64,000 bases of DNA, taken from contig JAZNBA010000072.1 in assembly GCA_045586785.1 (NCBI GenBank), forward strand, positions 59,197 through 123,196. Direction: 5' to 3'. Position numbers and translations under genes: made by a program. The notes beneath the pieces were generated by a model that did not search any database, was not told where the DNA came from, and saw only the letters and a list, made by a program, of their open reading frames with translations. Of the stretch, positions 29,846-50,481 are shown in pieces; position 1 is the stretch's first letter, and every line of letters starts with the position of its first letter. The DNA is from Eubacteriales bacterium (GTDB lineage Bacteria; Bacillota; Clostridia; Oscillospirales; CAG-272).

Positions 29846-30097
29846 TCACGCCTGCACCCTCAGTTCTTTTTGTTGTTTTCGCTTGGCTTTCCACTCTTCA
29901 AAGTCCTTTACGTTTTCTTCTTTACTGAAATATTCAAGAATATACGGCAAGAAACTTCGAGCAAGAACCTCATATTCATAATCGGGAACCTTTGTAGGAA
30001 GATCAACGATTAAATCTTCACCTCCGGACAAGGCGAGCTTGTTACTAAGCAACCACAAACCCACATAATATAATTTTTTAAATAAGCTCAATAGCAT
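29846..30097 (-). CDS. small hypothetical protein of the mobilisation module
   Basis: 83 aa. 1-nt overlap with the upstream ParB-like gene. No motif recognised. Confidence 0.5.
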   Translation of the reverse strand: MLLSLFKKLYYVGLWLLSNKLALSGGEDLIVDLPTKVPDYEYEVLARSFLPYILEYFSKEENVKDFEEWKAKRKQQKELRVQA

Positions 30098-30996
30098 TAC
30101 CTCCCGTCTCTATCCCAACTGCTACGGCTCTGCACTTTGCTCTGTTCTTTCTTTTTCCACTCGGTTAAGATTCGCAGAATTGCGCTCTCTATATCCTTTG
30201 GTGTAGAATCGGGAAAGAATGTTCGAAGAGATTCCAAATCAAGCCTCAGCGTTTCTTTTTGATTAGGTTTTGGGCGGCTCATAACCTCGAACATCATATC
30301 CGCATCAAGCAACTGCATTGCACTCATTTCTTTTAGTTTTACCGCCTGCGAGAGCGACGGAGTTGCCTCGTAATCTTGAATCAGTTCGGCAAGAGCTTGC
30401 TGTTCTTCCTCCTTGAGATAAGATAATTTCTCGGCGGGAGTTAAAGCGATCTTGCCTTCATCCACTAAATCAAGTAGCGGCTTGATAAGCTTTGTCAGAC
30501 GGATATACCGCTTGATCGTGTCCTTGCTCGTGTTCTCTTGTTCCGCGATAATCTCGGTAGATAACTTCGGCGCAACTTGCTCCGAAGTTAAATCACTCCT
30601 TGCTCCCTGCCGTTTGAGTGCATCAAACTTCATTTTGTACGCGAAGGCTTTTTCCGACGGTAGCAACTGCTCTCTGTGAAGGTTGGAATCTACCATTGCA
30701 AGGATTGCCTCATCGTCATCCAAATTGCGAACGATTACGGGAATGTCCTCTATACCAAGACGCTTGCAGGCTTCATATCTGCGGTGTCCCGAAACGATCT
30801 CATACTTCGCTCCACCATCAATTGGATTGGGACGCACAAGGATCGGCACGATCACGCCGTACTCTTTGATGCTCTCCATAAGCTGCTGCATATCGCTGTC
30901 ATCTCGAACTTGAAACGGATGGTTGCGCATCGGTATAAACATATCTAAATTGTAATTAACGGTTGTTTCGATTCTTTTGTTAGAATTTGTTATCAT
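30097..30996 (-). CDS. ParB/Srx-like nuclease domain protein
   Basis: 299 aa. VPILVRP...YEIVSGHRRYEACKRLG ParB N-terminal box. Confidence 0.8.
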   Translation of the reverse strand: MITNSNKRIETTVNYNLDMFIPMRNHPFQVRDDSDMQQLMESIKEYGVIVPILVRPNPIDGGAKYEIVSGHRRYEACKRLGIEDIPVIVRNLDDDEAILAMVDSNLHREQLLPSEKAFAYKMKFDALKRQGARSDLTSEQVAPKLSTEIIAEQENTSKDTIKRYIRLTKLIKPLLDLVDEGKIALTPAEKLSYLKEEEQQALAELIQDYEATPSLSQAVKLKEMSAMQLLDADMMFEVMSRPKPNQKETLRLDLESLRTFFPDSTPKDIESAILRILTEWKKKEQSKVQSRSSWDRDGR

Positions 30997-32381
30997 CTTT
31001 GTTTGTCCTCATTTCTTTTAGTTTTAGATTGGATCTTCGCTCCCGTTTCTCTCGGGAACATTTCTTGTTCTTGCTCCATTTCAATGCGGAGCTTTTCTTT
31101 TAGGTTTTCGATCATCGGGAATACACCCTTAGCCAAGTTGATATCGTGGCGAAGCGCCTTGAGTTCTCTTGAGATCGCTTTACGTTTGCGGGAACATTCT
31201 TCTTTTTCGGCATCCGTGGTTGCTCTGCGGCGGCGGTTGTCGATCTTGTTACGTGCTGACAGTAACATAGCCATATCTGCTTCTTTCTCATCAATAAAGG
31301 TTTGAACCTTATCGACAGTACCGAGATCGTTACGATTGATGAGATTGACCGTTTCCATATAACGTTCTAAATAGATCTGCTCTTGACGCATTGCAGGCGA
31401 AAGCGGCTCTTGATAGTTTTCCATCTTCATTAGGTTGCCGCTTGTATCGATGCCAAAGAGTTCAAGCACAATCATAAAGATAAGTTCAATCGTGTTGTGC
31501 TGATCATAGCTCTTGCGACGTTGCCAAATCTCATAAAGCGGTGGGTGACTCGGATAGTACGGTGTTCGGTATTCTCGCCTTGACAAGATGCGCTTTTCAA
31601 TCGCTTCGGGGGTATAGCGCTCTCCGAGGTTGTCGATACGGATAGGGCGTTTCCATCCCTTTGCTATTACACAAGGATGCTTATAATCCTTTCCGCGAAG
31701 ATAGGTGTAACCACGCCTTGACAAAGCGAATTGAAAGTGCTGCGGCAAAATGCAATCAGCGATAGCATCGTCAATGTCCATCTTCAATAGCATTCTGTGC
31801 GACGGCTTACCTTTCTTCTCCGCCATATACGCGACGTATGGCGCGCGTTTCCGCTGTGGGTTCTGAATGATCGACAGACCGTGTTCTCGGCAAAGCTTGT
31901 CCGATTCGGGAGCCATCACCGTATCGTGATAGTACGGCGGGCAATGGAACTTTTCTCCGTCCTTGAAGCTCACGCTATTCAGAATAAAGTGGTTGTGCAG
32001 ATGCTCGTGATCTCGATGGCTCGTTACGAGAACTTCATATTTGTCACCCCATAATCGCTTGGCAAGCTCCACACCGAGCGCGTGGCATTGCTCGGGGGTA
32101 ACCTCACCGGGTTTGAAACTTTGGTATCCGTGGTAGGCGACGATGCCGCCGTACTTGCCGTACCGTCGCTTGGTCTCCATCATCCGCTCATAGGCAAGCT
32201 CCGGCAGGCAGTTGACACCACTAATCAGATACCGCTGTTCCGTCTTATCGGGGTTCTCCGCATAATCCATAAGACGCTTGAGATCTTCCTCATTGGGATT
32301 TGATGTCTTATCCGGATTAGCGGCATAATCAAGCGCATCCTTGATAGAGCGATGCACAGCCCATATTGACGTTACTGCCAT
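30993..32381 (-). CDS. relaxase / mobilisation nuclease (MobA/VirD2-type)
   Basis: 462 aa. Histidine triad HRDHEHLHNHFILNSV and N-terminal AVHRSIKDALDYAANPDKT. Confidence 0.85.
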   Translation of the reverse strand: MAVTSIWAVHRSIKDALDYAANPDKTSNPNEEDLKRLMDYAENPDKTEQRYLISGVNCLPELAYERMMETKRRYGKYGGIVAYHGYQSFKPGEVTPEQCHALGVELAKRLWGDKYEVLVTSHRDHEHLHNHFILNSVSFKDGEKFHCPPYYHDTVMAPESDKLCREHGLSIIQNPQRKRAPYVAYMAEKKGKPSHRMLLKMDIDDAIADCILPQHFQFALSRRGYTYLRGKDYKHPCVIAKGWKRPIRIDNLGERYTPEAIEKRILSRREYRTPYYPSHPPLYEIWQRRKSYDQHNTIELIFMIVLELFGIDTSGNLMKMENYQEPLSPAMRQEQIYLERYMETVNLINRNDLGTVDKVQTFIDEKEADMAMLLSARNKIDNRRRRATTDAEKEECSRKRKAISRELKALRHDINLAKGVFPMIENLKEKLRIEMEQEQEMFPRETGAKIQSKTKRNEDKQR

Positions 32382-32740
32382 TACGCGCCTCCCTTATAGA
32401 GATCGCGGATGAGATTTACGAGCTCGGCTCTCGTTTCGCCATCCGCTCCCGCGCAGATATTTTCGAGCCTTGCGATGGTCGGATACCAATCCATAGGTCT
32501 CTCTCGGCTCATCCTTGTGTTAACCGATTGACGAAGGTACTCGGATACCGTAATTCCTCGCTTTTCGGCCGCGCGTTCGATTTTTGCTTTATGATCCGTT
32601 GTAGTTTTGAAACGAATCACTTCTTCTTTTTTCTTGTTGTCGATAATGTTTTCCTCCATTCCTTTTGGTTTTGTTCGTTCATCCGAGGGTATTAGGGACA
32701 CCTCCCTAAAGTGTCTTTGCGCTGAGGCAAAGACGGGCAA
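32381..32740 (-). CDS. MobC-like relaxosome accessory protein (ribbon-helix-helix)
   Basis: IRFKTTTDHKAKIERAAEKRGITVSEYLRQSV. The true start may be the internal ATG at 32659. Confidence 0.65.
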   Translation of the reverse strand: MPVFASAQRHFREVSLIPSDERTKPKGMEENIIDNKKKEEVIRFKTTTDHKAKIERAAEKRGITVSEYLRQSVNTRMSRERPMDWYPTIARLENICAGADGETRAELVNLIRDLYKGGA

Positions 32741-34094: not shown

Positions 34095-34132
34095 GACTTT
34101 GTAAAAAATATTTGATTGGAGGAGATTTGATT

Positions 34133-34483
34133 ATGGAACTCACCCACACCGAAAGAAACGGCATTATGTATCCCGACTTGGCACTCCCCGAGCAGACCAA
34201 TTACCCCATCGGCAAGTACGGCAGAATGCGCCTCAACTATCTCAAAAAGCATCGCCGCGGCACCTACACCACGCTTCTCACCTCGTGCACGCTCAATCAG
34301 CATCTCTATGAAACCGAGCAGGAGGTACAGCGGCAGATCGACCTCACCCTATCACGGTTGGTAAAAGAGCTCGGCATCACCGAAGAACTTAAAGTTTCTA
34401 ACCTTCTTCAGTGGGTACAAGAAATGAACAACGCGAAACAAAGCGCGGAGGAAATCGTGCTGAATGAAATAATCTGCAAATAA
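34133..34483 (+). CDS. TnpV-like transposon-encoded protein
   Basis: MELTHTERNGIMYPDLALPEQTNYPIGKYGRMRLNYLKKHRRGTYTTLL is typical of the TnpV family as I recall it from Tn4451-type elements. Confidence 0.7.
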   Translation: MELTHTERNGIMYPDLALPEQTNYPIGKYGRMRLNYLKKHRRGTYTTLLTSCTLNQHLYETEQEVQRQIDLTLSRLVKELGITEELKVSNLLQWVQEMNNAKQSAEEIVLNEIICK

Positions 34484-34496
34484 CTATCTAATCAAT

Positions 34497-34528
34497 CGCC
34501 GCTAAAAGTTTTTAGACTTTTGGCGGCG
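34497..34528 (+). terminator. terminator-like hairpin after tnpV
   Basis: CGCCGCTAAAAGT-N6-ACTTTTGGCGGCG (13 bp). Weak T-run. Confidence 0.5.
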
Positions 34529-34634
34529 GTTGGCTTATTATATCCGTAACTCTCCCGAAAACTTTCTGAGATATAATATTTAGCGGAACGCGCATTGCGC
34601 TGACCGCTATTTTCATTTTGGGAGGAAATGTAAA

Positions 34635-35549
34635 ATGCTTTATAAGGAATGGCTATCAAATTGGCTTGAAAATTACGTTAAAACCTCGGTAAAGGAGCGA
34701 ACGTATGTAAAATATGCAGATATCGTAAGAATCAGATTGTTCCCCGCACTTGGCGATTATGAATTGAATGATCTAACCCCCTTCAACGTTCAACGGTACA
34801 TAACAGAACTGTTGCATCACGGTAACTTGAAAAACGGCGAAGGATTGTCTGCAAACACGGTGAATTTGATTATTGCCGTCATACAAAGCTCAATGGAAAC
34901 GGCGCATTCCATCGGACTTACGGATGAATACAAGATGAATAAAATAAAACGCCCGAGGGTGCAGGAAAAACAAATCTCTTGTTTTTCTCCCTCGGAGCAA
35001 AAAATGATAGAGCAAGCGGTACTCGCTGACAAGCGCAGCAAGATGATCGGCATTTTGATATGCCTGTACACCGGCTTGCGCGTGGGAGAACTGCTTGCTC
35101 TTGAATGGACGGACATTGATTTTAGTAAAAACGAGCTTTCGGTAAACAAAACTTGTCACGACAAAGGGAAATCAAGAGTTACGACCACTCCAAAAACAAT
35201 ATCCTCGGTTCGGATCATCCCTATTCCAAAACAACTCGTTCCACATTTAAAGCCACTTAAAAAGCGAAGTAAAAGCCAATACGTTATATCCGAAAACGGC
35301 ACGTATATTTCGGTTCGATCATATCAGCGGAGCTTTGAACTGCTGTTAAAACGGCTTGGAATCGCTCATCAAGGCTTTCATTCTCTGCGACACACCTTTG
35401 CAACAAGGGCATTGGAGTGCGGAATGGATGTCAAAACGCTCTCGGAGATCCTCGGACATAAAAACGCGACGGTCACACTCAATCGCTATGCCCATTCACT
35501 GATGGATCACAAACGAGAGATGATGAACCGCCTTGGAAAACTGATGTAA
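34635..35549 (+). CDS. tyrosine-type site-specific recombinase/integrase
   Basis: 304 aa. SAM-like N-domain. Catalytic region ...GLRVGELLAL...HSLRHTFATRAL...LGHKNATVTLNRYAHS (R, HxxR, Y). Confidence 0.9.
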   Translation: MLYKEWLSNWLENYVKTSVKERTYVKYADIVRIRLFPALGDYELNDLTPFNVQRYITELLHHGNLKNGEGLSANTVNLIIAVIQSSMETAHSIGLTDEYKMNKIKRPRVQEKQISCFSPSEQKMIEQAVLADKRSKMIGILICLYTGLRVGELLALEWTDIDFSKNELSVNKTCHDKGKSRVTTTPKTISSVRIIPIPKQLVPHLKPLKKRSKSQYVISENGTYISVRSYQRSFELLLKRLGIAHQGFHSLRHTFATRALECGMDVKTLSEILGHKNATVTLNRYAHSLMDHKREMMNRLGKLM

Positions 35550-35556
35550 AAAAATA

Positions 35557-35584
35557 CACCTAACAATCTATTAGGTGAACAAAA
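35557..35584 (+). repeat. inverted repeat, left copy (IR-L)
   Basis: CACCTAACAATCTATTAGGTGAACAAAA. Its reverse complement matches 35689-35716 at 27/28 positions. Confidence 0.9.
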
Positions 35585-35604
35585 CAATATACTAACCCAT
35601 TATT

Positions 35605-35633
35605 ATTCTACCACAATACTCGCTTTTTTTCAA
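35605..35633 (-). promoter_or_regulatory. promoter inside the IR-flanked segment, currently facing the integrase 3' end
   Basis: Minus strand TTGAAA-17 nt-TAGAAT with TG extended -10. Confidence 0.5.
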
Positions 35634-35688
35634 TACATAGGAAGAAAAATTTACATATTTCTCCTCTATAGATGAACATCTCACGGAT

Positions 35689-35716
35689 TTTTGTTCACCT
35701 AATAGATTGTTACGTG
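35689..35716 (-). repeat. inverted repeat, right copy (IR-R)
   Basis: TTTTGTTCACCTAATAGATTGTTACGTG. Also part of a local 14-bp hairpin, 35684-35727. Confidence 0.9.
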
Positions 35717-35788
35717 AACAAAATCCGACTTGAAAATTCATCTATACCATTGACCAAATCAATGAAATAATAACAAGGAGAAACGAAA

Positions 35789-37759
35789 ATGTGTAAGTAT
35801 GAAGTGCCCAGTTCAGAATTAATGCGGAATATCAATTCGATGATTAAACCCTACGGAGTGAAGTATTTTGTCTCTGAAGAAAAATTCAATAATAACGAAA
35901 GCTGCTTTCCAACATTTGCTCGGAAGCCTGCTTCTGATGAGGACATTGCTAAATATGTGACCCATTACGGTTTGAGTCGCTATACAAAAGCCAACCAAAA
36001 AGCATTATTGGAATATTTTTGGGACGATTATCGTACTTTTTTCGGACGAGAACACGACAGAATAATTTGCACCAACTCTTTCCGTCGCTTGCAATATAAA
36101 ACGCAAGTTATGGTTAACTCTGCATCCGACGAGCAAAGAACAAGACTGTTGCATTCCTCGGAGGTTCAGAGAATCGCTAAAAAGATAGCCATTGGTGTTG
36201 GAGCCAATGCGGAATTGTCAGAAAATATAGCAATTGCTCACGATATTGGTCATGCTCCTTTTGGTCATAGTGGCGAGGAAGCAATTAGTGACTACATACT
36301 CGATATGTTCGAAAAAATCCCATCGCATTCAATTAAGAGTGGAACCACTTGTTTCTTACATGCAATGCAAAGCACCAAAGTGTTAGATTATATTGCTACC
36401 CATCCTACACTTCAGGAGAATGGTATAAATGGCTTGGGACTTTCAGATTATGTTTTAGAAGGAGTTTTGAAGCATGATTCTGATGTGTTTGCGGAGGAAA
36501 TCATAGCTGCACCCTTAAAAAAGCAGTACGATCCGGAAAGGCTGTGCGGTATTGTAGGCATCGGATCATACGAGGAAGTTAAGCGTAAGTTGCAGACATA
36601 CAATATAAAAAATAATGTCTTCATAGATACATATCCCCAAACATTTATCGGTAGCATTGAATCTCAAATTGTTGCTTGGGCTGATAAGATTGCATACCTT
36701 GGACACGATTGGGAAGAATTTTTGGATAATAAACTTCTTGAAAAATTAATGTCGAGAATCAATGATATGATTCACAAGATGTTTGAAGTTTCTTCGAAAA
36801 TTGCAGACACAAACGAAAAATTCTACATTGATACTATTTGTTTCAGACTTAAAGAGATTGAAGCCATATATTCAACTCTTGATGATACTGAAAAGGCAAA
36901 TAAAACTTTTGGTTGGAAAAAGGTTTATCAAGAATTATTGCGCATCATCGAGATTATTGAAAAAATTGAATCCGAGAACAAATTCGACCATTTCTCATCA
37001 AAAGAATATAGAGCTTTGAAAGACTATTTTGTTATGGTAATTAGTTGGACAAAGTTGCTGGACAAATATCCCTCCCCCCAAGCACTTAAATATGATCCCA
37101 TTTATATTTTCTATTTGTATTTGTCTGAGGTCAGAACAACAAATATAACAAAAAATGTTACAGAGAAAATTATCTCTGGATCCAACAGTATCCTTTCATC
37201 ACACAATTTCAACACAAGAGAAGAGTATTTATTGCACTGTAATCAAAAATGGGTTGAAGTTTTTAATAAAATCTTGTCTAACACAAGTCTTGATGAAAAA
37301 TCCAAGAAAAAGCAATTGAAAGACAGTATTCGCACTTGTTTTTTAGTTCAATTTGGTTCAGAGCAAACAAAAAACAACATCGTTAACATTGATTATAATC
37401 CTGATGTAATAAAGAAATCCAATACAGGATATTATTCTTTCGATGATACATACTGTTGCTTATTAAACATCATAGGTTGCATTTTTAGTCAATATATTAA
37501 AAGTACCCGTGTTAATTTTATGACTCAGAAGGCGAAAAGAATTGTTGCGGGATTGATGGAATATTACGTTAACCATCCCGAAATGCTCCCGTATTCTCAA
37601 CGAAGAAAGAATAACTTAAGCGATACCGATGAAGAACTTATTTATTTTATTGCAGATTATGTTGGTGGTATGACCGATCGTATGGCTAAGAAAAAATATG
37701 ATGAAATTATGTCATCGGATACCAAGTGGAGTAATGAATACAGTAGCGGCTTGAATTAA
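35789..37759 (+). CDS. dGTPase-like HD-domain (dNTP triphosphohydrolase family) protein with long C-terminal extension
   Basis: 656 aa. REHDRIICTNSFRRLQYKTQV, RTRLLHSSEVQRIAKKIA and AHDIGHAPFGHSGEE blocks. About 28 % GC on a sampled line. Confidence 0.8.
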   Translation: MCKYEVPSSELMRNINSMIKPYGVKYFVSEEKFNNNESCFPTFARKPASDEDIAKYVTHYGLSRYTKANQKALLEYFWDDYRTFFGREHDRIICTNSFRRLQYKTQVMVNSASDEQRTRLLHSSEVQRIAKKIAIGVGANAELSENIAIAHDIGHAPFGHSGEEAISDYILDMFEKIPSHSIKSGTTCFLHAMQSTKVLDYIATHPTLQENGINGLGLSDYVLEGVLKHDSDVFAEEIIAAPLKKQYDPERLCGIVGIGSYEEVKRKLQTYNIKNNVFIDTYPQTFIGSIESQIVAWADKIAYLGHDWEEFLDNKLLEKLMSRINDMIHKMFEVSSKIADTNEKFYIDTICFRLKEIEAIYSTLDDTEKANKTFGWKKVYQELLRIIEIIEKIESENKFDHFSSKEYRALKDYFVMVISWTKLLDKYPSPQALKYDPIYIFYLYLSEVRTTNITKNVTEKIISGSNSILSSHNFNTREEYLLHCNQKWVEVFNKILSNTSLDEKSKKKQLKDSIRTCFLVQFGSEQTKNNIVNIDYNPDVIKKSNTGYYSFDDTYCCLLNIIGCIFSQYIKSTRVNFMTQKAKRIVAGLMEYYVNHPEMLPYSQRRKNNLSDTDEELIYFIADYVGGMTDRMAKKKYDEIMSSDTKWSNEYSSGLN

Positions 37760-37780
37760 TCGCTATTTCAAGAATATTAT

Positions 37781-39388
37781 ATGAGAAATAAACCTTTCCC
37801 ACACTACAAGCACCCCATTTACGAAACCTTTGAACAGCTTCTCACTATTGTCAAATCAAAACACGGCGACAAGGTACTGTTCCGCACCCGACGTCACAAG
37901 AGCGAGGTAACTGTTACATACAATCAGTTTTACGATGATGTGCAAAAGCTCGCATCGCATTTCAGCAAGACCTACGGCGCGCACAACAAGATTGCCGTGA
38001 TCGGTGAAAACAGCTACGAATGGATTTTGACCTATTTCGCTGTCGTTTGCAGCAACAACATCATCGTTCCCATCGATAAGGAACTCTCCGCTCCCGACAT
38101 TGCCGAGCTACTGAAGGAGTGCGAGTATCGCACCTTGATCTATTCCAAAGACTACGATGACATTGCCGACGATATTGGTGGCATCATCCCCGATTTTGAA
38201 GCAATCGCCATGCCCAAACTGCGTAGGTTTATCGAAGCAGTTGAGGCAGCAGAGTGGATCGAAACCGACAAAAATGCGCTTGCATCGATCATTTACACTT
38301 CCGGCACGACAGGAAAGAGCAAGGGTGTTATGCTCTCGCAGAAGAATATTTGCGAGGACACCCGTGCGGCGTGCGGTTTCATCGAGCTGTACGGCAGAAG
38401 CCTTGCACTCTTGCCGTTCCATCACACGTTTGCGTTTACGGTCAGCGGTCTTGCCAATATCTATTACGGCGTTGATACCCTCATCGTTCCTTCTCTCAAA
38501 AACGTGATGGAGCTGATCAACGATTTCAAGCCGACCTACCTTGCCGTTGTTCCCATGATCGTCGAAAAGGTGGACAAGGGTATCCTTCAAAAGATTGAAA
38601 AGAGCGGCAAGAAGAAACTGCTCGGCGTGCTTGATAAGGTCTGCAAGCCTTTCGATGCGCTCGGTATCGGTCTGCGAAACAAGTGCTTTTCCGCCATCAG
38701 GGGCGGTCTCGGCGGCGAGCTTGACTTCATCATTTCGGGCGGCGCGCCCATCGATCAGCAGATCATTGACCGCTTTGATTCCTATGGCATCAGAATTATG
38801 AATGGCTATGGCATTTCCGAATGCTCACCCGTTGTCAGCGTCAACCGCCGTTATCACTACCGCGCGGGTAGTATCGGTCAGGCTCTCCCCGAGGTCAAGG
38901 TCATGATCGATAATCCCGACGAGAATGACGAGGGAGAGATCTGTGTGCAGGGCGATATCGTCATGCTCGGCTACTACAATATGCCCGAAGAGACCGAAAA
39001 GGCAATCGTTGACGGCTGGTTCCACACGGGCGACCTCGGCAAGCTCGACAAGGACGGCTTCATCTACATCACGGGGCGCATTAAGAATCTGATCATCTTG
39101 TCTAACGGTAAAAACGTTTCGCCCGAAGAGCTTGAAACGCTGATCGGTCGCATCCCCGGCGTTGTCGAATGCCTCGTCTCCGAGGAAGATAATAAGCTCG
39201 TTGCCGAGATCTATCCCAATGAAGAATTCCGCGCAACGCAGAATGACATTCAAGCATATTTCGACGAGCAGATCGGCCAGCTCAACGATACACTCCCGCC
39301 CTATAAGGCGATTGCAAAGGTCGCTATCCGTGACACCGAATTTGTAAAAACTACCACCAAGAAAATTAAGAGAACATACAAAAAGTGA
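37781..39388 (+). CDS. acyl-AMP/CoA ligase (fatty-acid activating adenylate-forming enzyme)
   Basis: 535 aa. IIYTSGTTGKSKGV, GYGISE, HTGDLG, ITGRIKNLIILSNGKNVSPEELE. Confidence 0.85.
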   Translation: MRNKPFPHYKHPIYETFEQLLTIVKSKHGDKVLFRTRRHKSEVTVTYNQFYDDVQKLASHFSKTYGAHNKIAVIGENSYEWILTYFAVVCSNNIIVPIDKELSAPDIAELLKECEYRTLIYSKDYDDIADDIGGIIPDFEAIAMPKLRRFIEAVEAAEWIETDKNALASIIYTSGTTGKSKGVMLSQKNICEDTRAACGFIELYGRSLALLPFHHTFAFTVSGLANIYYGVDTLIVPSLKNVMELINDFKPTYLAVVPMIVEKVDKGILQKIEKSGKKKLLGVLDKVCKPFDALGIGLRNKCFSAIRGGLGGELDFIISGGAPIDQQIIDRFDSYGIRIMNGYGISECSPVVSVNRRYHYRAGSIGQALPEVKVMIDNPDENDEGEICVQGDIVMLGYYNMPEETEKAIVDGWFHTGDLGKLDKDGFIYITGRIKNLIILSNGKNVSPEELETLIGRIPGVVECLVSEEDNKLVAEIYPNEEFRATQNDIQAYFDEQIGQLNDTLPPYKAIAKVAIRDTEFVKTTTKKIKRTYKK

Positions 39389-39398
39389 GGACAAAACC

Positions 39399-39626
39399 AT
39401 GTTAGATAAAGTAATTTCCATCATCAGCGAATATCAGGACATCCCTGCAGACACCATTCACGCCGATAGCCACCTCGTCAATGACCTCGGCTTCACCTCC
39501 TACGACGTGGTCAGCCTCGTCGGAAAATTTGAGGACGAGTTTGACATCGAAGTCCCCGACAGAAAGATCAAGCTCATGAAAACCGTGGACGATATCGTAA
39601 AATTCATCGAGGCAGCAATAGAATAA
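39399..39626 (+). CDS. acyl carrier protein
   Basis: 75 aa. LVNDLGFTSYDVVSL phosphopantetheine-site block. Confidence 0.85.
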   Translation: MLDKVISIISEYQDIPADTIHADSHLVNDLGFTSYDVVSLVGKFEDEFDIEVPDRKIKLMKTVDDIVKFIEAAIE

Positions 39627-39698
39627 TTATTGGTTCTATAAACACTAACCATACAAACACACATAACATTCATATAAAAAGAAATAGGAGAATGAACA

Positions 39699-40244
39699 AT
39701 GAGTCAGTACATCAAAATCCCCAGAGGACGTATCCCTAATCGCATTAATGATGAAATATTTAGAAAAATTGTATGTATGATTGGAAAAACTGAAAAAAGC
39801 AATTTTGTTACAGCAAAATTGTCAGACTATGCTCGTGGCAAAATTTATTTACGAAACAAGTATGGAATATGTGGATGCACATTGAAGAAAATGCATACAA
39901 TAAAAGTAACTACACACGGATTTGAAAATTTTGGCGATAACTATTCGAATTATGTGTCCCTTCATGAGGGAAAAGCAAAAATAATTTTTATGGTCATCAA
40001 AGACTATATAAAGAAAGACCCTAATAGAATAGCAGAATTACGTCATATATGTGAGGAGTTTTATACTACAAATCCTAATATTACTCCTACATACGCAAAT
40101 TCGTTGTTAAATGAAACGTTCAATTGGATTTTCGATTGTGGGTTGGAAACAGCACCTTTTTGTCAATTTAACAAACGGGACAATGCATGGGATATAGCGA
40201 ATGATATAAAATGTTCCATAGAAGAAATTGACGAAAACTTCTGA
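39699..40244 (+). CDS. hypothetical protein
   Basis: 181 aa with RBS AGGAG. About 30-32 % GC. No motif recognised. Confidence 0.5.
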   Translation: MSQYIKIPRGRIPNRINDEIFRKIVCMIGKTEKSNFVTAKLSDYARGKIYLRNKYGICGCTLKKMHTIKVTTHGFENFGDNYSNYVSLHEGKAKIIFMVIKDYIKKDPNRIAELRHICEEFYTTNPNITPTYANSLLNETFNWIFDCGLETAPFCQFNKRDNAWDIANDIKCSIEEIDENF

Positions 40245-40258
40245 AGGGAGGATATTAT

Positions 40259-40969
40259 ATGCGTCATACTGTGAATGAGTGGCAAGATTTAAGCCTGAAA
40301 AAAGATGTTGAAAATGTGGCAAGAGAAATCAAGAGAAAAGGCAAAAGAGAGAGTATTTTAACACTCGATTTGTTACTTGCCATATTAGCTATTATGTTTG
40401 ATCATTTATTCTCGGAAAATGAGTGCGAAAGGATAATAGTTTTAAGTGTAATTGCTGGATTGGCGGTAATAATTACTGCTATATATTTTTTACTAAAATT
40501 TTTGGATTGGCGTAAAGCGAGAAGAAAAATAAAAAGCGGGATCATAAAAATAAAGCCTTATGTTGATTTGTTTGATAATAATATTTGTTATTATGCCATG
40601 ACAGCAAATACGTTTAGAGAAAATTTCCAAAACGAATCTCATGATTCGTCAATAAAGAACTTCTACTTTATTGAATCGAATTACTATGTGAATAAGTGCA
40701 TAACTGAACTAAATAATATGAAAAATCTCATAGGAGAAATCTTCACAAATGATGAAAATGAAGCTGTTTCAAAAGCGAAAATTCACACTTCAAGATTAGA
40801 GAATATTATTTTGCTTTTATGTGACGCAAGAGTTAATCCAACCTCTGTATCTTCCTCAATAGAAGATACTATACGAATCTCAAAAATATATGATGCACGG
40901 ATGATAAAATTTGTTGAAACTTATAATAAGCAATTTGAAAAAACTATAGAATGGACTTCTTTTCAATAA
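40259..40969 (+). CDS. hypothetical membrane protein
   Basis: 236 aa with RBS GGGAGG. Two predicted TM helices (aa ~33-85), then a soluble domain. About 30 % GC. Confidence 0.5.
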   Translation: MRHTVNEWQDLSLKKDVENVAREIKRKGKRESILTLDLLLAILAIMFDHLFSENECERIIVLSVIAGLAVIITAIYFLLKFLDWRKARRKIKSGIIKIKPYVDLFDNNICYYAMTANTFRENFQNESHDSSIKNFYFIESNYYVNKCITELNNMKNLIGEIFTNDENEAVSKAKIHTSRLENIILLLCDARVNPTSVSSSIEDTIRISKIYDARMIKFVETYNKQFEKTIEWTSFQ

Positions 40970-41041
40970 ACGCTTTCACGTTGAATGTAGTGAAATCAAT
41001 TGAATTTCTACGAGGATTAATCAAAAAATAGATAGGTAAAT

Positions 41042-44000
41042 ATGAAAACATACGCTTTATCCAATGCACAATTAAATATATTAGATACAGAGCTATTTTA
41101 TCGAGGCTCTGCTATCAATATCGTAGGAGGAGTCTGCCTACTTAACGAGCCAATTGAGGAAGAACAGTTGTCATCGGCATTGAACAAACTAATTGCCAAC
41201 AACGATTGGCTCCGCACCAGAATTAGAGGTAACAGATCTTCACTGTATCGTTATGTTTCTGAATATACTGATGCATCTTTTGCAACTTTGGATTTTACCA
41301 ATGTTTCGGAAGCTGAAATGTGGTCTGCATTGGAGGAAGCAAACAAGGCTCCTTTTGATATTTGGGATTCACAACTCTACGATGTAAAATTGGTACGTAC
41401 TCCGAACAATAAAATCGGATATTGGTTCAGAGCGCACCATATTGTTTGTGATGCCGCCAATATGTATCGTATCGTTGCCGAGGTATCGAGCCTTATTTTT
41501 GGCAATGACAATCCGTTGCCGAGTAATGCACGGGTTCGGGATATTACTGCCCGTATGAAAGAAAAGGCGCTTACATATTGGCGTGATAATGAGATCACAG
41601 GACTTGAAAGCCATCGTCCTACGGGAACTGTAGTAGCAGACCGAATGACATTCAAACTGTCGGGCGATATCATGAAAAAGCTGAGTGCGTTTGCTGAATC
41701 CAAACAGATCGCGTGTTCAACCATCGTTGAGGGCGCGTATTATTTGGCTTTGTCTGCTTTGTTTGATAAAGACAGATTTTCAGTCGGTCTTATGTATCTG
41801 GATGACAACAGTGCTTGCGTGGACGGACTTGCCGGACCCCGCGCTTCTGTTGTGCCGACAATTTCAAAACTTGATCCCTCTCTTACCTTTGCGGAATACT
41901 GTGAGGAAATTCTGGATCAGCACATGACGGCATATCGCTATTCATGTTTGCCTTACAGAGATATCCTTTCGGCAGTCAAGCATGATAGCGAAAACAAAAA
42001 TTCCTCGTTTTATGATTTCGTATATTCCTGCCACGCACTCGACACCTCTATTTTGGGGGATTGTGAGATCAAATGGCTTTTCAACGGTTGCTCGGAAGTT
42101 CCGCTGAAATTGAGTGTTATGCCCGAAAAGGATACGCTCAATCTAATGATCGATTGTCGTAAAGGTGTTTACATTGGCGGCTTTACAGAAAAGCTCTATC
42201 AATGTATTCTTTCTGCGCTTAACCACATCTTCGACGCTCCCGATGCACATCTTGGTACATTGGTTAATGCCATCCATGCCGATATCCATCAAACCGGGCA
42301 TATAAGCAAAGAACGTGTTTGTATCGCGGCATCTTTTACTGCTGATCCGATTGACGAATACCTGTATTATTGGGCGCACAGAGATAACGTTATTTTGAAT
42401 TTGTCCTTTGCACCGTATAATCAGATTCAGCAAATGCTTCTCGATCCGAACAGCATATTCCGAAACAATAAAAATGGCACTAACATCATTCTAATGCGTT
42501 TTGAGGATGCGATTCGTCATACGGATGATTCTGCTGAAGCGCGTATTGCGGTCATGCAGCATATGCAAAAGGAATTTACAACCGCCCTGTGTAGCTATCC
42601 TACAGATGCTCCTCGATGCCTTGTAGTGTGTTTGCCTTTTGACGGCAATATTGCGGGTGTGTCTGCCGAGATCGTAGCAAATATGAATGAGCAGATCAAA
42701 GCGGTTTGCTCCAAGATTCCCAATATTCATTATGTCGATACCGACGATCTCTGTGAGAGATACGTTGTTCACGATACCCTTGATACCGTTGCCGATGACG
42801 AAGGTCATATCCCTTATACCACCACATTCTTCGCCGCATTGGGCACTCACGTTTGGCGACAGCTTTGCGCAGCAAAACGAGTGAAAAAACATAAGGTTTT
42901 GGTCGTGGATTGCGATAATACCTTATGGCAAGGTGTTTGCGGTGAAATTGGTGCGACCAATGTAACCGTTGATGGCGGTTACGCATGGTTTCAAAAATTT
43001 CTACTTGCGAAGCGCGAAGAAGGATACCTTCTGGCGATTGCAAGTAAGAACAATCCCGAGGACGTTAAGCGTGTATTTGCCGAAAACAAGCAAATGCTCT
43101 TAAAAGAAAGCGATATTTCCGCTTGGCGCGTATCTTGGAATCCGAAAGCTGAAGAGATCAGATCTATTGCCGAAGAGTTAAATCTTGGGCTTAACAGCTT
43201 TGTCTTTTTCGATGACAATCCCGTTGAATGCGATGCGATGATCGAAGAAAATCCCGAGGTTTTGACAGTACGTATGCCCTTGGATTCTACACAGATTGCT
43301 CCGCTTGTCGGCAACATTTGGGCACTTGACAGCGTATATACCACGGACGAAGATCGCAACCGTGCCGATATGTACCGAGCAGAAAAAGAGCGCGAGCAAG
43401 CGAGAACCGAGGAAAAATCTCTGCACGCATATCTTAAAAAGCTGAACATCCAAATGTATATGTATCCCACCACGCCCGATGAAATTGATCGCGTGGCACA
43501 GCTTACACAGCGCACCAATCAGTTTAACATGAACGGTGTGAGATACCTCAAGGAGGATGTTACCGAATGGCTGCAGAGCGATCACTACGGATGCTATAGT
43601 GTATATGTGAAGGACGCATACGGAGATTACGGTCTTGTCGGCGCGCTCGTCCTTTCTTATACTGACGGCAAGTGTAATTTACAGACCTTTGTCCTTAGTT
43701 GCCGCGTACTCGGACGAGAGATCGAAATTGCTATTTTGAATGAAATTGCCAATATTGCAAGATCACGCGGTGCTTTTGCATTCAGCGCCTCAGTCAAGCG
43801 CACACAGAAAAATGAACCCTTTATGCGCTTCTGGCAGGCGTATGTTGAGGACAATGAAAATATTGTATGTGCGAATTTCAATACGCCTTCGCATATTACG
43901 GTTATCCAAGAAAAATATATTAAGCCTACCTCTCAAAAGGCAAATACAACAGCAGCTGTTAAATCTGTTGCTCATACAGGAACTTGCGCGCTGACGACCG

Positions 44001-47000
44001 TGCCGTCGGATATTCAAACGAATGATGCGGAATTAAAAGAATTCATTCCGTTGTGTGCATCCGAAGCAATTGCTCAAGCACTCGGCAAATTCATTCCCGG
44101 ACAAGCTCAGGGCGAGATCGTGGATAAAGTAAAATCGGTGTGGGAGAGTGTGCTCGGACTTACGATTGACCGTGATGATGCAAGCTACTTTGAACTTGGC
44201 GGTGATAGTCTTAAAGCTGTTCATCTCATTTCTATACTGGATAAAGAATTTGGTGCTCGCATTTCAGTGTCGGACATTTATCGCTATGCCACTATTTCGG
44301 ATATGGCAAAGTATATTGCCACTCTGATACCCGAAGAAGCAGCTGAATTTGAACACATCAGCACGACCGAGCCGTATCCACTCTCGTCAGCACAGCAAAG
44401 AATGTTTGTACTTCAATCCATGAATCGTGACTCTGTTCAGTATAACGAATCGCAAGCAATGGAGATGATCGGTCAGGTCAACATTGAGCGGATACAAAAT
44501 GCTGTGTACGAAATCATCAATCGTCACGATATTCTCCGTACTGCTTTTACGCTTGAACAAGGAGTTCCTGTTCAAACGGTGTTGCCTTGTGTCGATATCA
44601 AGGTTGAGACGATTTCTTGCACCGAAGATTCATGGCAAAAAGAGGCTATCGCATTTAGAAAACCTTTTGATTTGTCGAATCCTCCGTTGATGCGCTTCGC
44701 CGTGCTTCATACCACCGATACCAACCGCAACTTTATGCTGTTCGATGCTCACCATATGGTCATTGACGGCACATCCTTTGCGGTATTTGCAGAGGAATTT
44801 GTCCGTTTGTATAACGGCGAAGTGCTTCCCGAAAACAAGTATCAATACATAGATTACGTTAATTGGGAGAATAAACGTAAGGATACGCCCGAATACGAAA
44901 GCGATATGGCATATTGGGTATCGCAGTTTGATCCTATGCCTGCACCGCTTGCGTGGATCGACGATAGCAAACGCGCCAATAGCATCGGTAGAGGAAATAC
45001 CTTGTTCTATGCTACAGATAGTGAACTCAAACAATCGTTGGAGAACTATGCAAGTAAGAATCAGGTAACCCTATTTTCCGTACTGCTCTCTGCGTATGCA
45101 ATGACGATTTCTTCGCTTGCCAATGCAGACGAGTTTGTTGTAGGTGTCCCTGCTTCTAACAGATTACATCATCACACACTCTCGATGATGGGCAATTTCG
45201 TCAACAGTATGCCGATCCGCATTGCCACCACCGCAGAAAGCAAAATCAGTGCTCTGGTGAAATCGGTATTTGACACAACGACCGAAGCACTCAACCACCA
45301 AAGCTGTCCTTATGAGAATATCGTAAAAGCATTGCAATGCGACCGTCAGAACAATCGCAACCCGCTATTCGACGTGATGTTCTCGCTTCAAAACTTTGTT
45401 TCGCCCATCATTGAAACCAAGGATATGAAGCTTGTACAAATGCCTATGCAAGTCGGAACAGCAAAAAATGATATCCGTTTGTTTGCTGCATTGCACGATG
45501 ACCATATATCTTTTGAAATGGAATACGACATAGACCTCTTTGATACTTACTTTATGGAGTCGTTCCGTGAAAAATATTTGTCTGTATTGGAGTTGATGGT
45601 TACAGACGAGGCAATGACAGCCGGCGATATTGCGACTGAATTGCAACACAAACAGAAAGAAGCAGACCGTTTGTTCCTTGAAAAGTATAACGATACGGCA
45701 AGACCCGGTTACTACGATCACCTCGTTCACGACATGATCCGTGAACAGGTAGAGAAAATTCCGGATGCAATTGCACTTATTTGTGGCGGTGAGAAGCTGA
45801 CCTACCGTGAACTTGATGATCGTTCCTCGGCTTTGGCAAACATTCTGCGTCAAAAAGGTGTTCGTGCAAGAGATAAAGTCGGCATTGTATTGCCTCGTTC
45901 TCCCGAGCTGATCGTCGGACTGTTGGCGATCATGAAAGCGGGAGCAGTCTATGTGCCTGCCGATCCGATATATCCTACCGAGCGTATCGATTATATGTTC
46001 GGTAATAGCGAGATCGTTTGTATGATTTCGCAGAACGATATGGAACTGCCGAGCGAATACATTCGTTACGATATTCATGAATTGGAGAAAGAAGAAACTG
46101 TCGAACAGACCATTGAGGACGAGACGCTTACTCCCGATGATCTCATTTATATTCTTTACACCTCCGGATCAACAGGCAAGCCTAAAGGAGTTATGATCAA
46201 GCATGGCGCGGTAAGCAACTTTATTAATTCGCTCCGTGAGTTGATTCCATACGAAGAACAAAGCGCAATTTTGGCGACAACTACGGTTTGCTTTGATATG
46301 TCAATTATTGAATTGTGGAGAACGCTATCGTTTGGAGGAACGATGATTTTTGCAACCGATAACGAACGACATGATATCGACGCTCATCGGGAAATGATAA
46401 AAAAACATGGCATTTCTGAACTGAATATTACTCCCTCGCAAATGTCTGTGTTTTTACTTGATACAAATCCAAGCATTTGGAAGAGTATTCAAACTATTAT
46501 GATTGGTGCAGAACCTGTTCCACCATCGTTAGTTGAAAAAATAAAACATATCATACCGCAAGCTCGAATTTTTGATTTGTATGGCCCTACGGAAACAACT
46601 GTATATTCTTCAATTATGGAGCTGACAAACGAAACAGAGGTCACTATCGGGCATCCAATTGCAAACACAAAACTTTTCGTTGTTGACTCCGAAAAGAAAA
46701 TTCTCCCTATCGGTATGACGGGCGAATTGTGTATCGGTGGTTTAGGCTTGTCTGCGGGATATATGAATCGTCCCGATCTGACCGAGAGACAATTTGTGAC
46801 CCTTGCCGAAAATAATGAATTTGTTTATCGGACGGGAGATCTTGCAACACTTCGCGCCGATGGGAAGATGCTGTGCCATGGTCGAATCGATAACCAAATC
46901 AAAATCCGCGGTTATCGTGTGGAGTTAGAGGAAATCGAGCAAAGTATTATGAAGAGCGGCTTGTGCAGAGAATGTACTGTATTCTTGTTGGATAATGATC

Positions 47001-48559: not shown

Positions 48560-48563
48560 TGCT

Positions 48564-49331
48564 ATGAAAACAGCAATTATTACTGGCGCATCTTCCGGCG
48601 TTGGCACGGAATTTTTGAAAGTGCTTGTTCATGATAACAGCATCGAAGAATTTTGGATCATCGCAAGAAACGAAAAACGCCTTGAAGAATTAAAAGCACA
48701 ATATTCCAATAAAAGTATCGTTTGCATACCTCTTGATTTGACAAACGAAGAATCAATGCAGGTATATGAAAATCACCTCCGTGCAAAAAAGCCGGAGGTG
48801 GTGACCCTTGTTAATAATGCGGGATTTGGTATTTTAGGAGAGGTATATGGTTCGGATTATGTAGAGCAAGCGAAAATGGTAGATTTGAATTGTCGCGCTC
48901 TCACAACCATTACAACAATAACCTTGCCGTACATGACTGAAAATTCGGGAATCATCAATATGGCTTCTATTGCTGCATACTGCCCAAATCCGAATTTTAC
49001 GGTTTATTGTTCTGCCAAAGCATACGTATTGAGCTATTCTCGTTCATTGCGTTATGAACTGAGAATGAAAAAACGCAAGATCAATTCTCTTGCCGTTTGT
49101 CCCGGACCTATGAACACAAACTTTTGCGCTACTGCAGGAATCACAACACAGTTTGATGCCTTGCCGTTCACTGATCCTGCCAAAGTTGCTAAAACCGCTG
49201 TCAAGAAACTTCGTGAAGGAAAAGCCGTCTATACGCCCGGTGTATTCTTTAAATTTTATCGTTGTATTGCTAAATTACTTCCACACTCGCTTGTGATGGG
49301 ATTTAGCCAAACGATTAAAGATGGAAAATAA
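48564..49331 (+). CDS. short-chain dehydrogenase/reductase (SDR)
   Basis: Start at MKTAIITGASSGVGTEF (AAGGAG upstream). NNAG and YCSAKAY motifs. Confidence 0.85.
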   Translation: MKTAIITGASSGVGTEFLKVLVHDNSIEEFWIIARNEKRLEELKAQYSNKSIVCIPLDLTNEESMQVYENHLRAKKPEVVTLVNNAGFGILGEVYGSDYVEQAKMVDLNCRALTTITTITLPYMTENSGIINMASIAAYCPNPNFTVYCSAKAYVLSYSRSLRYELRMKKRKINSLAVCPGPMNTNFCATAGITTQFDALPFTDPAKVAKTAVKKLREGKAVYTPGVFFKFYRCIAKLLPHSLVMGFSQTIKDGK

Positions 49332-50481
49332 TGAATATATAGATACGAACAGAGCATGGGCTGAAATCGACATAACTAAAGCAAAGGAAAATTATTTTTC
49401 CATAAAGAAATGTCTTAAGCCCCAAACCCAAATATGCTGTGTAGTGAAAGCCAACGCCTACGGTCACGGCTCTGTTCGTATGGCTCAGTTATATGAGTCA
49501 CTTGGTGCAAATTACTTGGCTGTTGCTACGATTGAAGAAGCTCTGCAACTTCGTCAAGCCCCAATAAAGCTACCGATACTAATATTGGGATATACCGCAC
49601 CGCAATATGCAGATGTTCTATCCGATAACGATATTACACAGTGCGTATATTCATTAGACTACGGTCGAGCTTTGTCAAGTTGCGCTACAGAAAAAGGCAA
49701 ACCCGTAAAAGTACATATTAAAATTGATACGGGAATGGGTCGCATTGGATTTCGATACGTTGGCGGCGATGAGCAAGAATTAACAGATGCGCAAACTGTA
49801 TGCCGAATGCAAGGGTTGACTGTAGAAGGTATTTTTACTCACTTTTCGTCTGCTGATGATGAAATAGGTTCTGATGAAACAACAGAGCGACAGTATCAAT
49901 ACTTCTTAGAAGCAATTTCATATTTGGAAAAGCGAGGCATTCAATTTTCTATTCGCCACTGTTCCAATAGTGCTGCAATCCTTAAATATCCCCATACGCA
50001 GCTCGATATGGTACGTGCTGGTATTTCCTTGTATGGATTGGATGCTGATAATTTATTTTCATGTCAAACAAATCTGCATCAGATACTCCAACTAAAAACA
50101 ATAGTTAGCCATATAAAGCTAATCCATAAAGGAGATACTATTGGATACGGTCGGTAATATGTTGCAGAAAAGGACACAATTATCGCAACTCTTCCAATTG
50201 GATATGCGGATGGTCTGTGGAGAGCCAATTCGCGTCACGGAATGCTTGTGAATATTAACGGTGAGTACGCACCCATTATTGGACGAATTTGTATGGATCA
50301 ATGTATGATTGATGTCACAGCGTTGAAAGAAGTAAATGTCGGCGATATTGTTACGGTATATGGTGATAGTGAAATCAACTCAATAGATAAAATTGCAGCA
50401 ATAAACAAAACTATCAGCTATGAGATTGTTTGTAGTGTTAGCGAAAGAGTACCAAAATTTTATGTTAATAACGATTTGTGA
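49321..50481 (+). pseudogene. alr: alanine racemase interrupted by one in-frame TAA (50155-50157)
   Basis: VVKANAYGHG PLP-Lys motif. ...[33 protein letters not shown]... continues in the same frame (50242 minus 49321 is a multiple of 3). Confidence 0.8.

Follow-up and report, generated by a model that had tools for sequence, protein, structure and literature searches.

The 64,000-nucleotide stretch analyzed here, referred to below as the window, comes from an Eubacteriales bacterium (GenBank assembly GCA_045586785.1, contig JAZNBA010000072.1) and carries, between a tyrosine recombinase gene and an operon for a nonribosomal peptide synthetase (NRPS), a pair of inverted repeats (IRs) that enclose a predicted promoter. 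Judged from the comparison of this locus with its homologs, the feature is very probably a phase-variation promoter switch (inverton) that is driven by the tyrosine recombinase encoded in cis and that is OFF in this assembly. In the proposed mechanism, the recombinase encoded at 34635–35549 would bind the core sites at 35557–35584 and 35689–35723, and strand exchange inside the inverted 7-nt cores CAATCTA/TAGATTG would flip the core-to-core segment of ~130 bp. In the orientation found in the window, the promoter would face the end of the recombinase gene and the operon from 35789, which would be without a promoter of its own, would be OFF. In the inverted orientation, transcription would start at ~35675, ~114 nt upstream of the operon, which would be ON. 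Together, the recombinase gene and the switch form a cassette that recurs before a variety of cargo genes in Clostridia of the gut and rumen.

Opposite Orientations of the Segment in Homologous Loci

Contigs encoding a recombinase that is 90% identical to that of the window (P0013) were found in two forms. In L007, L009, L010, and L011, the promoter is on the plus strand and faces the NRPS gene, and in L008 it is on the minus strand, which is the orientation of the window. L007 and L008 align collinearly along 7.8 kb, with 13 differences outside the switch. Twelve of these are inside the recombinase open reading frame (ORF); since the encoded proteins are identical, these twelve must be synonymous. 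At the switch, the differing 115 bp of one contig are the exact reverse complement of those of the other, and this relation spans 141 bp. Moreover, a polymorphism of the inner half-site (GGTG vs. CATG) changes sides with the segment while the outer half-sites stay, which places the exchange within the 13 nt TAACATTATATTA that include the 7-nt core. An exchange confined to these core-bearing 13 nt agrees with the prediction for conservative site-specific recombination at the cores. A misassembly cannot account for the inversion, as both the reads and the k-mers used are far longer than the 27-nt repeat.

In addition, four pairs of related loci in reference metagenome-assembled genomes (MAGs) carry the segment in opposite orientations. 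The identities to the reverse complement vs. the direct sequence were 98 vs. 61% for L031/L033, 89 vs. 61% for L019 and L028 against L047, 75 vs. 48% for L059/L077, and 72 vs. 58% for L063/L093.

Architecture of the Recombination Sites

The left recombination site (IR-L, 35557–35584, CACCTAACAATCTATTAGGTGAACAAAA) begins at the 8th nt past the stop codon of the recombinase ORF, which ends 7 nt before it. IR-L and its right counterpart (IR-R; 35689–35716 for the IR pair proper) are complementary at 27 of 28 positions (96%) and enclose the 104 bp of the putative invertible segment (35585–35688), whose homologous segments are the exact reverse complements of each other in L007 and L008. When inverted repeats within 400 nt were scored with +1 for a match and −2 for a mismatch, this pair scored 25, compared to best scores of 11–15 per resampling when the 64-kb window was resampled 30 times under a first-order Markov model. 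It ranked second among the short-range inverted repeats of the whole window, the better one being an unrelated repeat at 54920–55114.

Each arm is a near-palindrome around a 7-nt core and thus has the layout of a tyrosine-recombinase core site, which is a half-site, an asymmetric core, and a half-site. IR-L is composed of an outer half-site at 35557–35563 (CACCTAA), a core at 35564–35570 (CAATCTA), and an inner half-site at 35571–35584 (TTAGGTGAACAAAA). The full palindrome of IR-R spans 35689–35723, with an inner half-site at 35689–35702 (TTTTGTTCACCTAA), a core at 35703–35709 (TAGATTG), and an outer half-site at 35710–35723 (TTACGTGAACAAAA) that carries one mismatch, CACG vs. CACC. Within the window, the 14-mer half-site is confined to the switch, except for one match with two mismatches inside the recombinase ORF. 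The left and right cores are the reverse complements of each other and so have an inverted relative orientation. Asymmetric cores in this orientation argue for inversion rather than deletion or excision, and the DNA physically exchanged from core to core would be ~35571–35702, roughly 130 bp.

The right site lies between two half-site-like motifs that are about equally far from it. The inner accessory motif TATAGATGAAC (35667–35677, plus strand) is 11 nt inside IR-R, travels with the segment, and is kept in L001, L007, L012, and L104. The outer accessory motif TTCATCTATA (35737–35746, plus strand) is located at the right end of the conserved cassette.

The repeats might instead act as RNA, forming a long hairpin in the read-through transcripts of the recombinase gene that would serve as an attenuator or a processing signal. 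The IR-R palindrome folds well (−16.8 kcal/mol, z = −3.8), and the two arms could pair over 28 bp. However, no Rfam family matched the switch, neither arm is followed by a U-run on the plus strand, and a hairpin leaves the exact reverse-complemented inner segments, the conserved inner promoter, and the asymmetric 7-nt cores unexplained, which makes this explanation highly improbable. The only Rfam result was a sub-threshold match of a microRNA model to the terminator of the upstream TnpV gene, which is just a hairpin. On the minus strand, the IR-L palindrome and the T-run at 35549–35556 resemble a weak terminator and might conceivably act as one; their fold is not significant (−9.1 kcal/mol, z = −1.45). 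Still less credible, and in effect refuted, is a miniature inverted-repeat transposable element that landed beside an integrase gene. A 160-bp unit with 28-bp terminal inverted repeats would suit such an element, but the window contains no other copies and no visible target-site duplication, and the unit invariably follows members of one recombinase family at one fixed position.

The Predicted Promoter

Inside the segment, on the minus strand, is the predicted promoter TTGAAA-17-TAGAAT with a TG extension (35605–35633). It consists of a −35 element at 35633–35628 (TTGAAA), a 17-nt spacer, a −10 element at 35610–35605 (TAGAAT), and TG at 35613–35612, with 10 of 12 matches to the consensus, and it faces the 3′ end of the recombinase gene, which is the OFF orientation. 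This is the best promoter-like site of the region, and in the OFF orientation transcription from it would begin near 35598 on the minus strand. No plus-strand promoter-like site was found between 35717 and 35788, the interval from IR-R to the ATG at 35789. After inversion about the two core centers, the promoter would be at ~35640–35668 on the plus strand, with its −10 element at ~35663–35668 and a start at ~35675. The ON-state leader of ~114 nt to the ATG would hold the IR-R palindrome and lacks a U-run. The location of a promoter inside the segment is thus predicted from both its consensus and its conservation among related loci, and the orientation of the segment would probably control the transcription of the operon.

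Much of this anatomy had been described in an earlier note, which was made from the letters of the window. The tyrosine recombinase that it placed at 34635–35549 has the expected Phage_integrase and SAM_3 domains, and the 27/28 reverse-complement arms around 104 bp, said to start right after the recombinase stop, were recovered at the same coordinates with a score that no resampling approached (25 vs. at most 15). Our scan of 35717–35788 was as empty of plus-strand promoters as the note had found it, and its minus-strand promoter, directed at the 3′ end of the integrase gene, was borne out. Its predicted distance of ~110 nt between the inverted promoter and the start at 35789 was also right, the computed value being ~114 nt. 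The half-site and core structure of the arms is an addition to what the note had laid out.

The Tyrosine Recombinase

The putative invertase (34635–35549, plus strand) has 304 amino acid residues, with an N-terminal SAM-like domain and a catalytic domain (Pfam SAM_3 and Phage_integrase). R149, H249-x-x-R252, H275, and Y285 are invariant in an alignment with 19 relatives, so the catalytic residues are intact. This recombinase is probably the enzyme responsible for the inversion. The closest solved structure is that of Tn1549 Int (PDB 6EN0, 6EMY, and 6EMZ; E = 1e-18), which is matched by residues 126–301 only.

Assignments to several known families were rejected. The protein scored 25.3 bits against the Fim-type invertase family (NCBIfam PRK09871), whose cutoff is 222, and 105.6, 78, and 61 bits against XerA, XerC, and XerD, whose NCBIfam cutoffs are 220, 335, and 330, respectively. 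It was also not assigned to the integrases of Tn916/Tn1549-type elements, as the match to 6EN0 is limited to residues 126–301, both sites are downstream of the gene, and their cores are inverted. The exact protein was absent from the protein collection in an exact look-up, and relatives at 77–95% identity were present. A distant blastn search of PLSDB plasmids with 34400–36100 gave no match.

The recombinase gene has its own weak promoter on the plus strand, with a −10 element GATATAAT at 34570–34577. It is followed by a leader hairpin and a U-run at 34581–34609 (region 34570–34620, which corresponds to L001:4740–4818), with a fold of −17 kcal/mol (z = −2.6). Judging from the predicted fold, this hairpin and its U-run may be an attenuator that keeps the invertase level low. 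The recombinase leaders of the relatives have one of two unrelated sequences, both of which pair AGC... with ...GCT around the stem.

Similar Cassettes in Other Clostridia

A family scan, in which each species was represented by one genome, identified at least 551 relatives of the recombinase. Almost all of them were from MAGs of Clostridia from gut and rumen, among them Christensenellaceae, Oscillospiraceae, and "Eubacteriales," and their hosts include ruminants, humans, chicken, and mouse. Among the 73 loci with enough downstream sequence, 57 possessed an IR that begins 1–45 nt past the recombinase stop and encloses 94–177 nt. A strict site grammar, which comprises two palindromic 8-7-8 sites with identical inverted 7-nt cores 127–171 nt apart, was found in 46 of 93 loci and in none of 1860 shuffles; the palindrome filter of at least 6 of 8 half-site matches was controlled by shuffling. 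The half-sites are alike across the family (yCAyCTAw). The core sequence varies by lineage yet always agrees between both arms of a locus, and such covariation is a requirement of a crossover region.

The inner segments of the family nearly always contain a strong extended −10 promoter, TTGAct-17-TGnTATAAT. A promoter score of at least 11.5 was reached by 68% of the inner segments, 0.8% of shuffles, and 0% of recombinase-ORF pieces of the same length, and a score of at least 10.5 by 89% of the family switches vs. 6.5% of shuffles. In the reference genomes, the promoter faces the recombinase (OFF) at 43 loci and the cargo (ON) at 13. The earlier note had proposed that the segment is an invertible switch, and this proposal stands on the exact inversion between L007 and L008, the four further flipped pairs, and the architecture shared by 57 of the 73 family loci. 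None of the alternatives offered in the note, namely integrase binding sites, a former element end, and a long RNA hairpin, accounts for inner segments that are exact reverse complements.

In the wider family, the first same-strand gene starts ~150–250 nt past the recombinase stop. The cargo of distant relatives includes surface proteins with Listeria-Bacteroides repeats and leucine-rich repeats, DNA methyltransferases, restriction enzymes, helicases, and sigma factors, a set of genes typical of phase variation, which favors the switch interpretation. In the subclade of the window, all lineages whose contig includes the downstream gene have an NRPS as cargo.

State of the Probable Switch in the Window

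Several points weigh against the switch interpretation. No ON copy of the window's own type was found, and all seven read-through copies of this type (L001–L003, L005, L101, L102, and the window) were OFF. The members of the flipped pairs are from separate samples or strains, and what they establish is the occurrence of inversion and not a high frequency within a population. The promoter was called from its consensus and its conservation only. There is no plus-strand terminator between the recombinase stop and the operon, and read-through could thus give some expression in the OFF state. At the thresholds used, 16 of the 73 usable family loci are without an IR. Finally, the JGI collection and the viral and mobile genetic element (MGE) contigs lack this subclade, as the subclade pattern had no match in either.

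A flipped window-type switch would carry a junction in which ...ACACCTAACAATCTATTAGGTGAACAAAA runs directly into TCCGTGAGATGTTCATC.... A pattern that matches only this flipped form was empty in the JGI metagenomes, as was an orientation-independent pattern for the subclade; because the collection lacks the window's subclade, this result is uninformative on orientation. A degenerate left-arm pattern gave seven single matches in the viral and MGE contigs, which were dismissed as chance, since all were inside unrelated phage ORFs with no recombinase.

The window could hold a relic or a locked switch, meaning that the family flips and this copy is no longer active, either from low recombinase expression or from imperfect sites, with its operon permanently off or expressed by read-through. 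The uniform OFF orientation of the window-type copies, the mismatch in the right outer half-site, and the terminator-like hairpin in the recombinase leader are in line with such a relic. However, the recombinase ORF is not truncated and retains every catalytic residue, and the same outer half-site mismatch is found in L007 and L008, which flipped. Moreover, L103, whose left arm is identical to that of the window, terminates exactly at the point where ON and OFF sequences diverge. We consider a relic unlikely, and the window's copy probably still flips.

L103 is one of three Logan contigs, together with L017 and L105, that end exactly at the last base of IR-L, the ON/OFF divergence point. Their exact repeats of 20–24 nt are shorter than k − 1 for k = 31, the k-mer size of the unitigs from which we take the Logan contigs to be built. 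Because of this, the repeat alone should not branch the assembly graph, whereas two continuations in one sample would. As read from the assemblies, these contig ends are suggestive of mixed ON/OFF populations. Many contigs with these tyrosine recombinases, or with the serine recombinases described below, are only ~0.8–2 kb long, which is consistent with assemblies breaking at invertible repeats.

Cassette Borders and the Surrounding Element

The recombinase gene and the switch form a cassette of 1.1–1.2 kb (34545/34623–35746). Its left end (34545–34634, plus strand) holds the weak promoter and the leader hairpin of the recombinase gene. Nucleotide homology to related loci begins at 34623, or at 34545 where the recombinase leader is shared, as in L101 and L104–L106 (from 34545/6), and it ends at 35745/6, right after TTCATCTATA. 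The sequences upstream and downstream of the cassette are unrelated among loci. Past the right border, 29–30 nt are hypervariable even among loci with homologous NRPS cargo, and similarity resumes at GAGAAAGCGGGACTCAT. Because of this hypervariable spacer, the sharp right border needs no recombination event.

Such borders raise the question of whether the repeats serve the recombinase as attachment or binding sites for integration, excision, or DNA capture. The locus would then be the end of an element or resemble an integron platform, and inversion would be a side reaction. Besides the sharp limits of homology at 34545/34623 and 35746 and the unrelated cargo in different genomes, the coincidence of the right border with a half-site-like motif and the conjugative-transposon integrase as the closest solved homolog would fit this explanation. 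Against it, both sites lie to one side of the gene at a distance of 139 nt from each other, and their inverted cores would lead to inversion and not to excision. In addition, a strong promoter is conserved between the sites, the window has no third copy of the site, the spacer accounts for the right border, and the surrounding element has an integrase of its own. An attachment-site function is therefore very unlikely, more so than a relic, and a promoter switch remains the preferred reading.

The cassette lies inside a mobilizable element of low guanine-plus-cytosine (GC) content. The GC content of this region is 0.36–0.46, compared to ~0.49 in the left flank. On the minus strand, the region encodes a ParB-like protein (30097–30996), a relaxase (30993–32381), and a NikA-like protein (32381–32740); a LexA-like repressor is also encoded there. 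A large serine recombinase of 629 amino acid residues (53461–55350, plus strand) is likely the integrase of this element, and the presence of such an integrase agrees with a dedicated role of the tyrosine enzyme as an invertase.

TnpV is encoded at 34112–34483 (plus strand) and is directly followed by a strong terminator-like hairpin with a 19-bp stem (34492–34533), just before the left edge of the cassette. TnpV and DUF6809 genes precede the recombinase gene in many close relatives. They are probably not obligate partners or directionality factors of the switch, as they account for only 2 of 56 upstream ORFs in the wider family and are absent in L101 and L104.

The repeat at 54920–55114 is a 40-nt inverted repeat (90%) whose arms are 23-bp perfect hairpins (TCACCAAAACAAAACAGGAGCAC and GTGCTCCTGTTTTGTTTTGGTGA). 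It is within the 3′ third of the serine recombinase ORF, beyond the Pfam domains of that protein. Possible readings of this repeat are an element end, an att region, or an ORF that has been extended too far.

The Cargo Operon

The whole cargo operon (35789–50157) is on the plus strand. It begins with a dGTPase-family HD protein of 656 amino acid residues (35789–37759), followed by an acyl-AMP ligase (37781–39388), a carrier protein (39399–39626), two unknown ORFs (39699–40244 and 40259–40969), the NRPS (41042–48559), a short-chain dehydrogenase/reductase (48522–49331), and a pyridoxal phosphate (PLP)/alanine-racemase-N protein (49321–50157). The domains detected in the NRPS were two Condensation, AMP-binding, two PP-binding, and a terminal NAD_binding_4, in agreement with a C-A-T-C-A-T-R architecture (condensation, adenylation, thiolation, and reductase domains).

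The dGTPase-family protein scored 180 bits against a subfamily cutoff of 152 and also matched the dGTPase model of PADLOC (anti-phage). Its length of 656 amino acid residues is unusual for this family. Its best full-length homologs are only ~60% identical, and one of them is encoded in L112, where the same gene set is present. That the gene is an independent phase-variable anti-phage gene is less favored, because its synteny with the ligase and NRPS genes extends to L112. This recurrent synteny makes it more likely to be part of the cluster, in which, as far as gene order can tell, it may be a member of the biosynthetic pathway or a co-regulated defense or immunity gene. The closest homolog of the gene (78% identical; L109:3450–3760) is split into ORFs of 203 and 443 amino acid residues. 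L109 has no adjacent recombinase gene, keeps an accessory-motif remnant AAAATTCACTTATAC upstream, and contains an 81% IR (3459–3484 and 3601–3626) made of four GGGATAATC motifs.

In the ~60 nt ahead of the NRPS start codon of L001, L007, L012, L098, L101, and L104, a conserved block, GAGAAAGCGGGACTCAT(T/C)CAT(C/T)ATG, is located just before and across the start. Between this block and the TTCAYCTAT motif is a hypervariable spacer with a constant length of 29–30 nt; the window is without this block. In L100 (1120–1311), whose recombinase is 93% identical, IR-R is fused directly to the GAGAAAGCGGG block, and the outer accessory motif and the spacer are missing. This natural deletion could show whether the accessory motif matters.

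A Similar Arrangement With a Serine Recombinase

The L112 cluster consists of genes for the dGTPase-like protein, a 535-residue ligase, a C-A-T-R NRPS, a carrier protein, and an ORF of 182 amino acid residues. Upstream of this cluster is a gene for a Resolvase-family serine recombinase of 207 amino acid residues (switch region L112:577–1388; ENA ERZ27303204 k141_428371). An IR of 24 nt begins 34 nt after the serine recombinase gene and encloses 107 nt, which contain a TTGACA-17-TATAAT promoter with TG (12 of 12 matches) facing the cluster. Related serine-recombinase loci have a homologous switch before other cargo. The opposite orientation was not found among the four copies of the L112-type switch (L112 and L114–L116), which all had one orientation. 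Judged by its layout, the L112 switch may be a convergent inverton of another recombinase class, as a candidate for a switch of the Hin/Gin serine invertase type.

Comparison With Known Systems

The mechanism and layout, an inverton with a tyrosine invertase encoded in cis, are already known; the unusual part is that the cargo combines an NRPS cluster and a gene of the dGTPase family. Similar to fimS of Escherichia coli with FimB/FimE, the window has a promoter on a short segment next to a tyrosine recombinase gene, predicted to turn a downstream operon ON or OFF. fimS has a length of 314 bp with 9-bp repeats, and its two recombinases have ~200 amino acid residues and no N-terminal SAM-like domain. 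Different from that system, the protein of the window is far below the cutoff of the Fim-type model (25 vs. 222 bits). The RecV-dependent switches of Clostridioides difficile (cwpV, flgB, and cmrRST) are also inversions by a tyrosine recombinase and control surface and signaling genes. There, a single recombinase serves several distant switches in trans, and cwpV works via a terminator and not a promoter. The catalytic domain of the window's protein has its nearest solved homologs among the Tn1549/Tn916-type integrases (PDB 6EN0, 6EMY, and 6EMZ). Those enzymes integrate and excise elements, whereas this 304-residue protein matches them in the catalytic half only and its sites are arranged for inversion.

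Gut Clostridia have NRPS clusters with a terminal reductase domain that reportedly make dipeptide aldehydes or pyrazinones (Guo et al., Cell, 2017). The window resembles them in its C-A-T-C-A-T-R architecture and its gut-type Clostridia context. To our knowledge, neither a dGTPase-family gene nor phase-variable control has been described as a feature of that NRPS family.

The closest layout on record is that in the integrative and conjugative elements of Bacteroidales, where invertible promoters with an invertase gene immediately upstream regulate antibiotic-resistance or glycan genes (IP-ARG classes; PMC8748976). Similar to the window, these systems comprise a tyrosine-type invertase gene, an IR-flanked promoter directly downstream, and a cargo operon, are located on mobile elements, and have had their cargo swapped in evolution. 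Different from them, the window is from Clostridia and has unrelated repeats, NRPS cargo, and a sigma-A type extended −10 promoter instead of a Bacteroides-type promoter (PMC8748976). In the hCom2 community, a Clostridia-dominated "inverton group 139" was tied by proximity to "invertase group 35," a tyrosine recombinase/integrase, and read-level flipping of group 139 was shown in Clostridium sp. D5 and Intestinimonas (PMC11892184). Both that group and the switch of the window are Clostridia invertons with a nearby tyrosine recombinase. Compared by description and not by sequence, however, the inner segments of group 139 are ~205–228 nt vs. 94–177 nt here, and no NRPS cargo was reported for them (PMC11892184). 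Our literature searches yielded nothing relevant that links invertible promoters or invertons to nonribosomal peptides, biosynthetic gene clusters, or secondary metabolites, and two large inverton surveys contain no mention of NRPS or biosynthetic cargo.

Implications

The established targets of invertons are surface structures and restriction-modification systems, which resistance genes have joined more recently. The moderate interest of the locus rests on its cargo, on the size and site grammar of the Clostridial family, and on the possible convergent switch with a serine recombinase. The Clostridial cassettes with a recombinase and an inverton encoded in cis are a very large family with a clear site grammar, which is usable to annotate phase-variable genes from assemblies. 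It is tempting to suggest, at somewhat less than even odds in our judgment, that gut and rumen Clostridia produce nonribosomal peptides in a phase-variable manner, that this trait was selected more than once, with one cluster type (dGTPase-like gene, acyl-AMP ligase, and reductase-terminated NRPS) behind a tyrosine-recombinase inverton in the window and behind an unrelated serine-recombinase inverton in L112, and that the recombinase-promoter unit is a portable ON/OFF module before many cargoes in hundreds of Clostridial species. If the switch works as we infer, the metabolite would be made by only a subpopulation of cells at any time. Production by a subpopulation, if true, would explain why such clusters seem silent in culture, and locking the switch ON would provide a handle for their activation.

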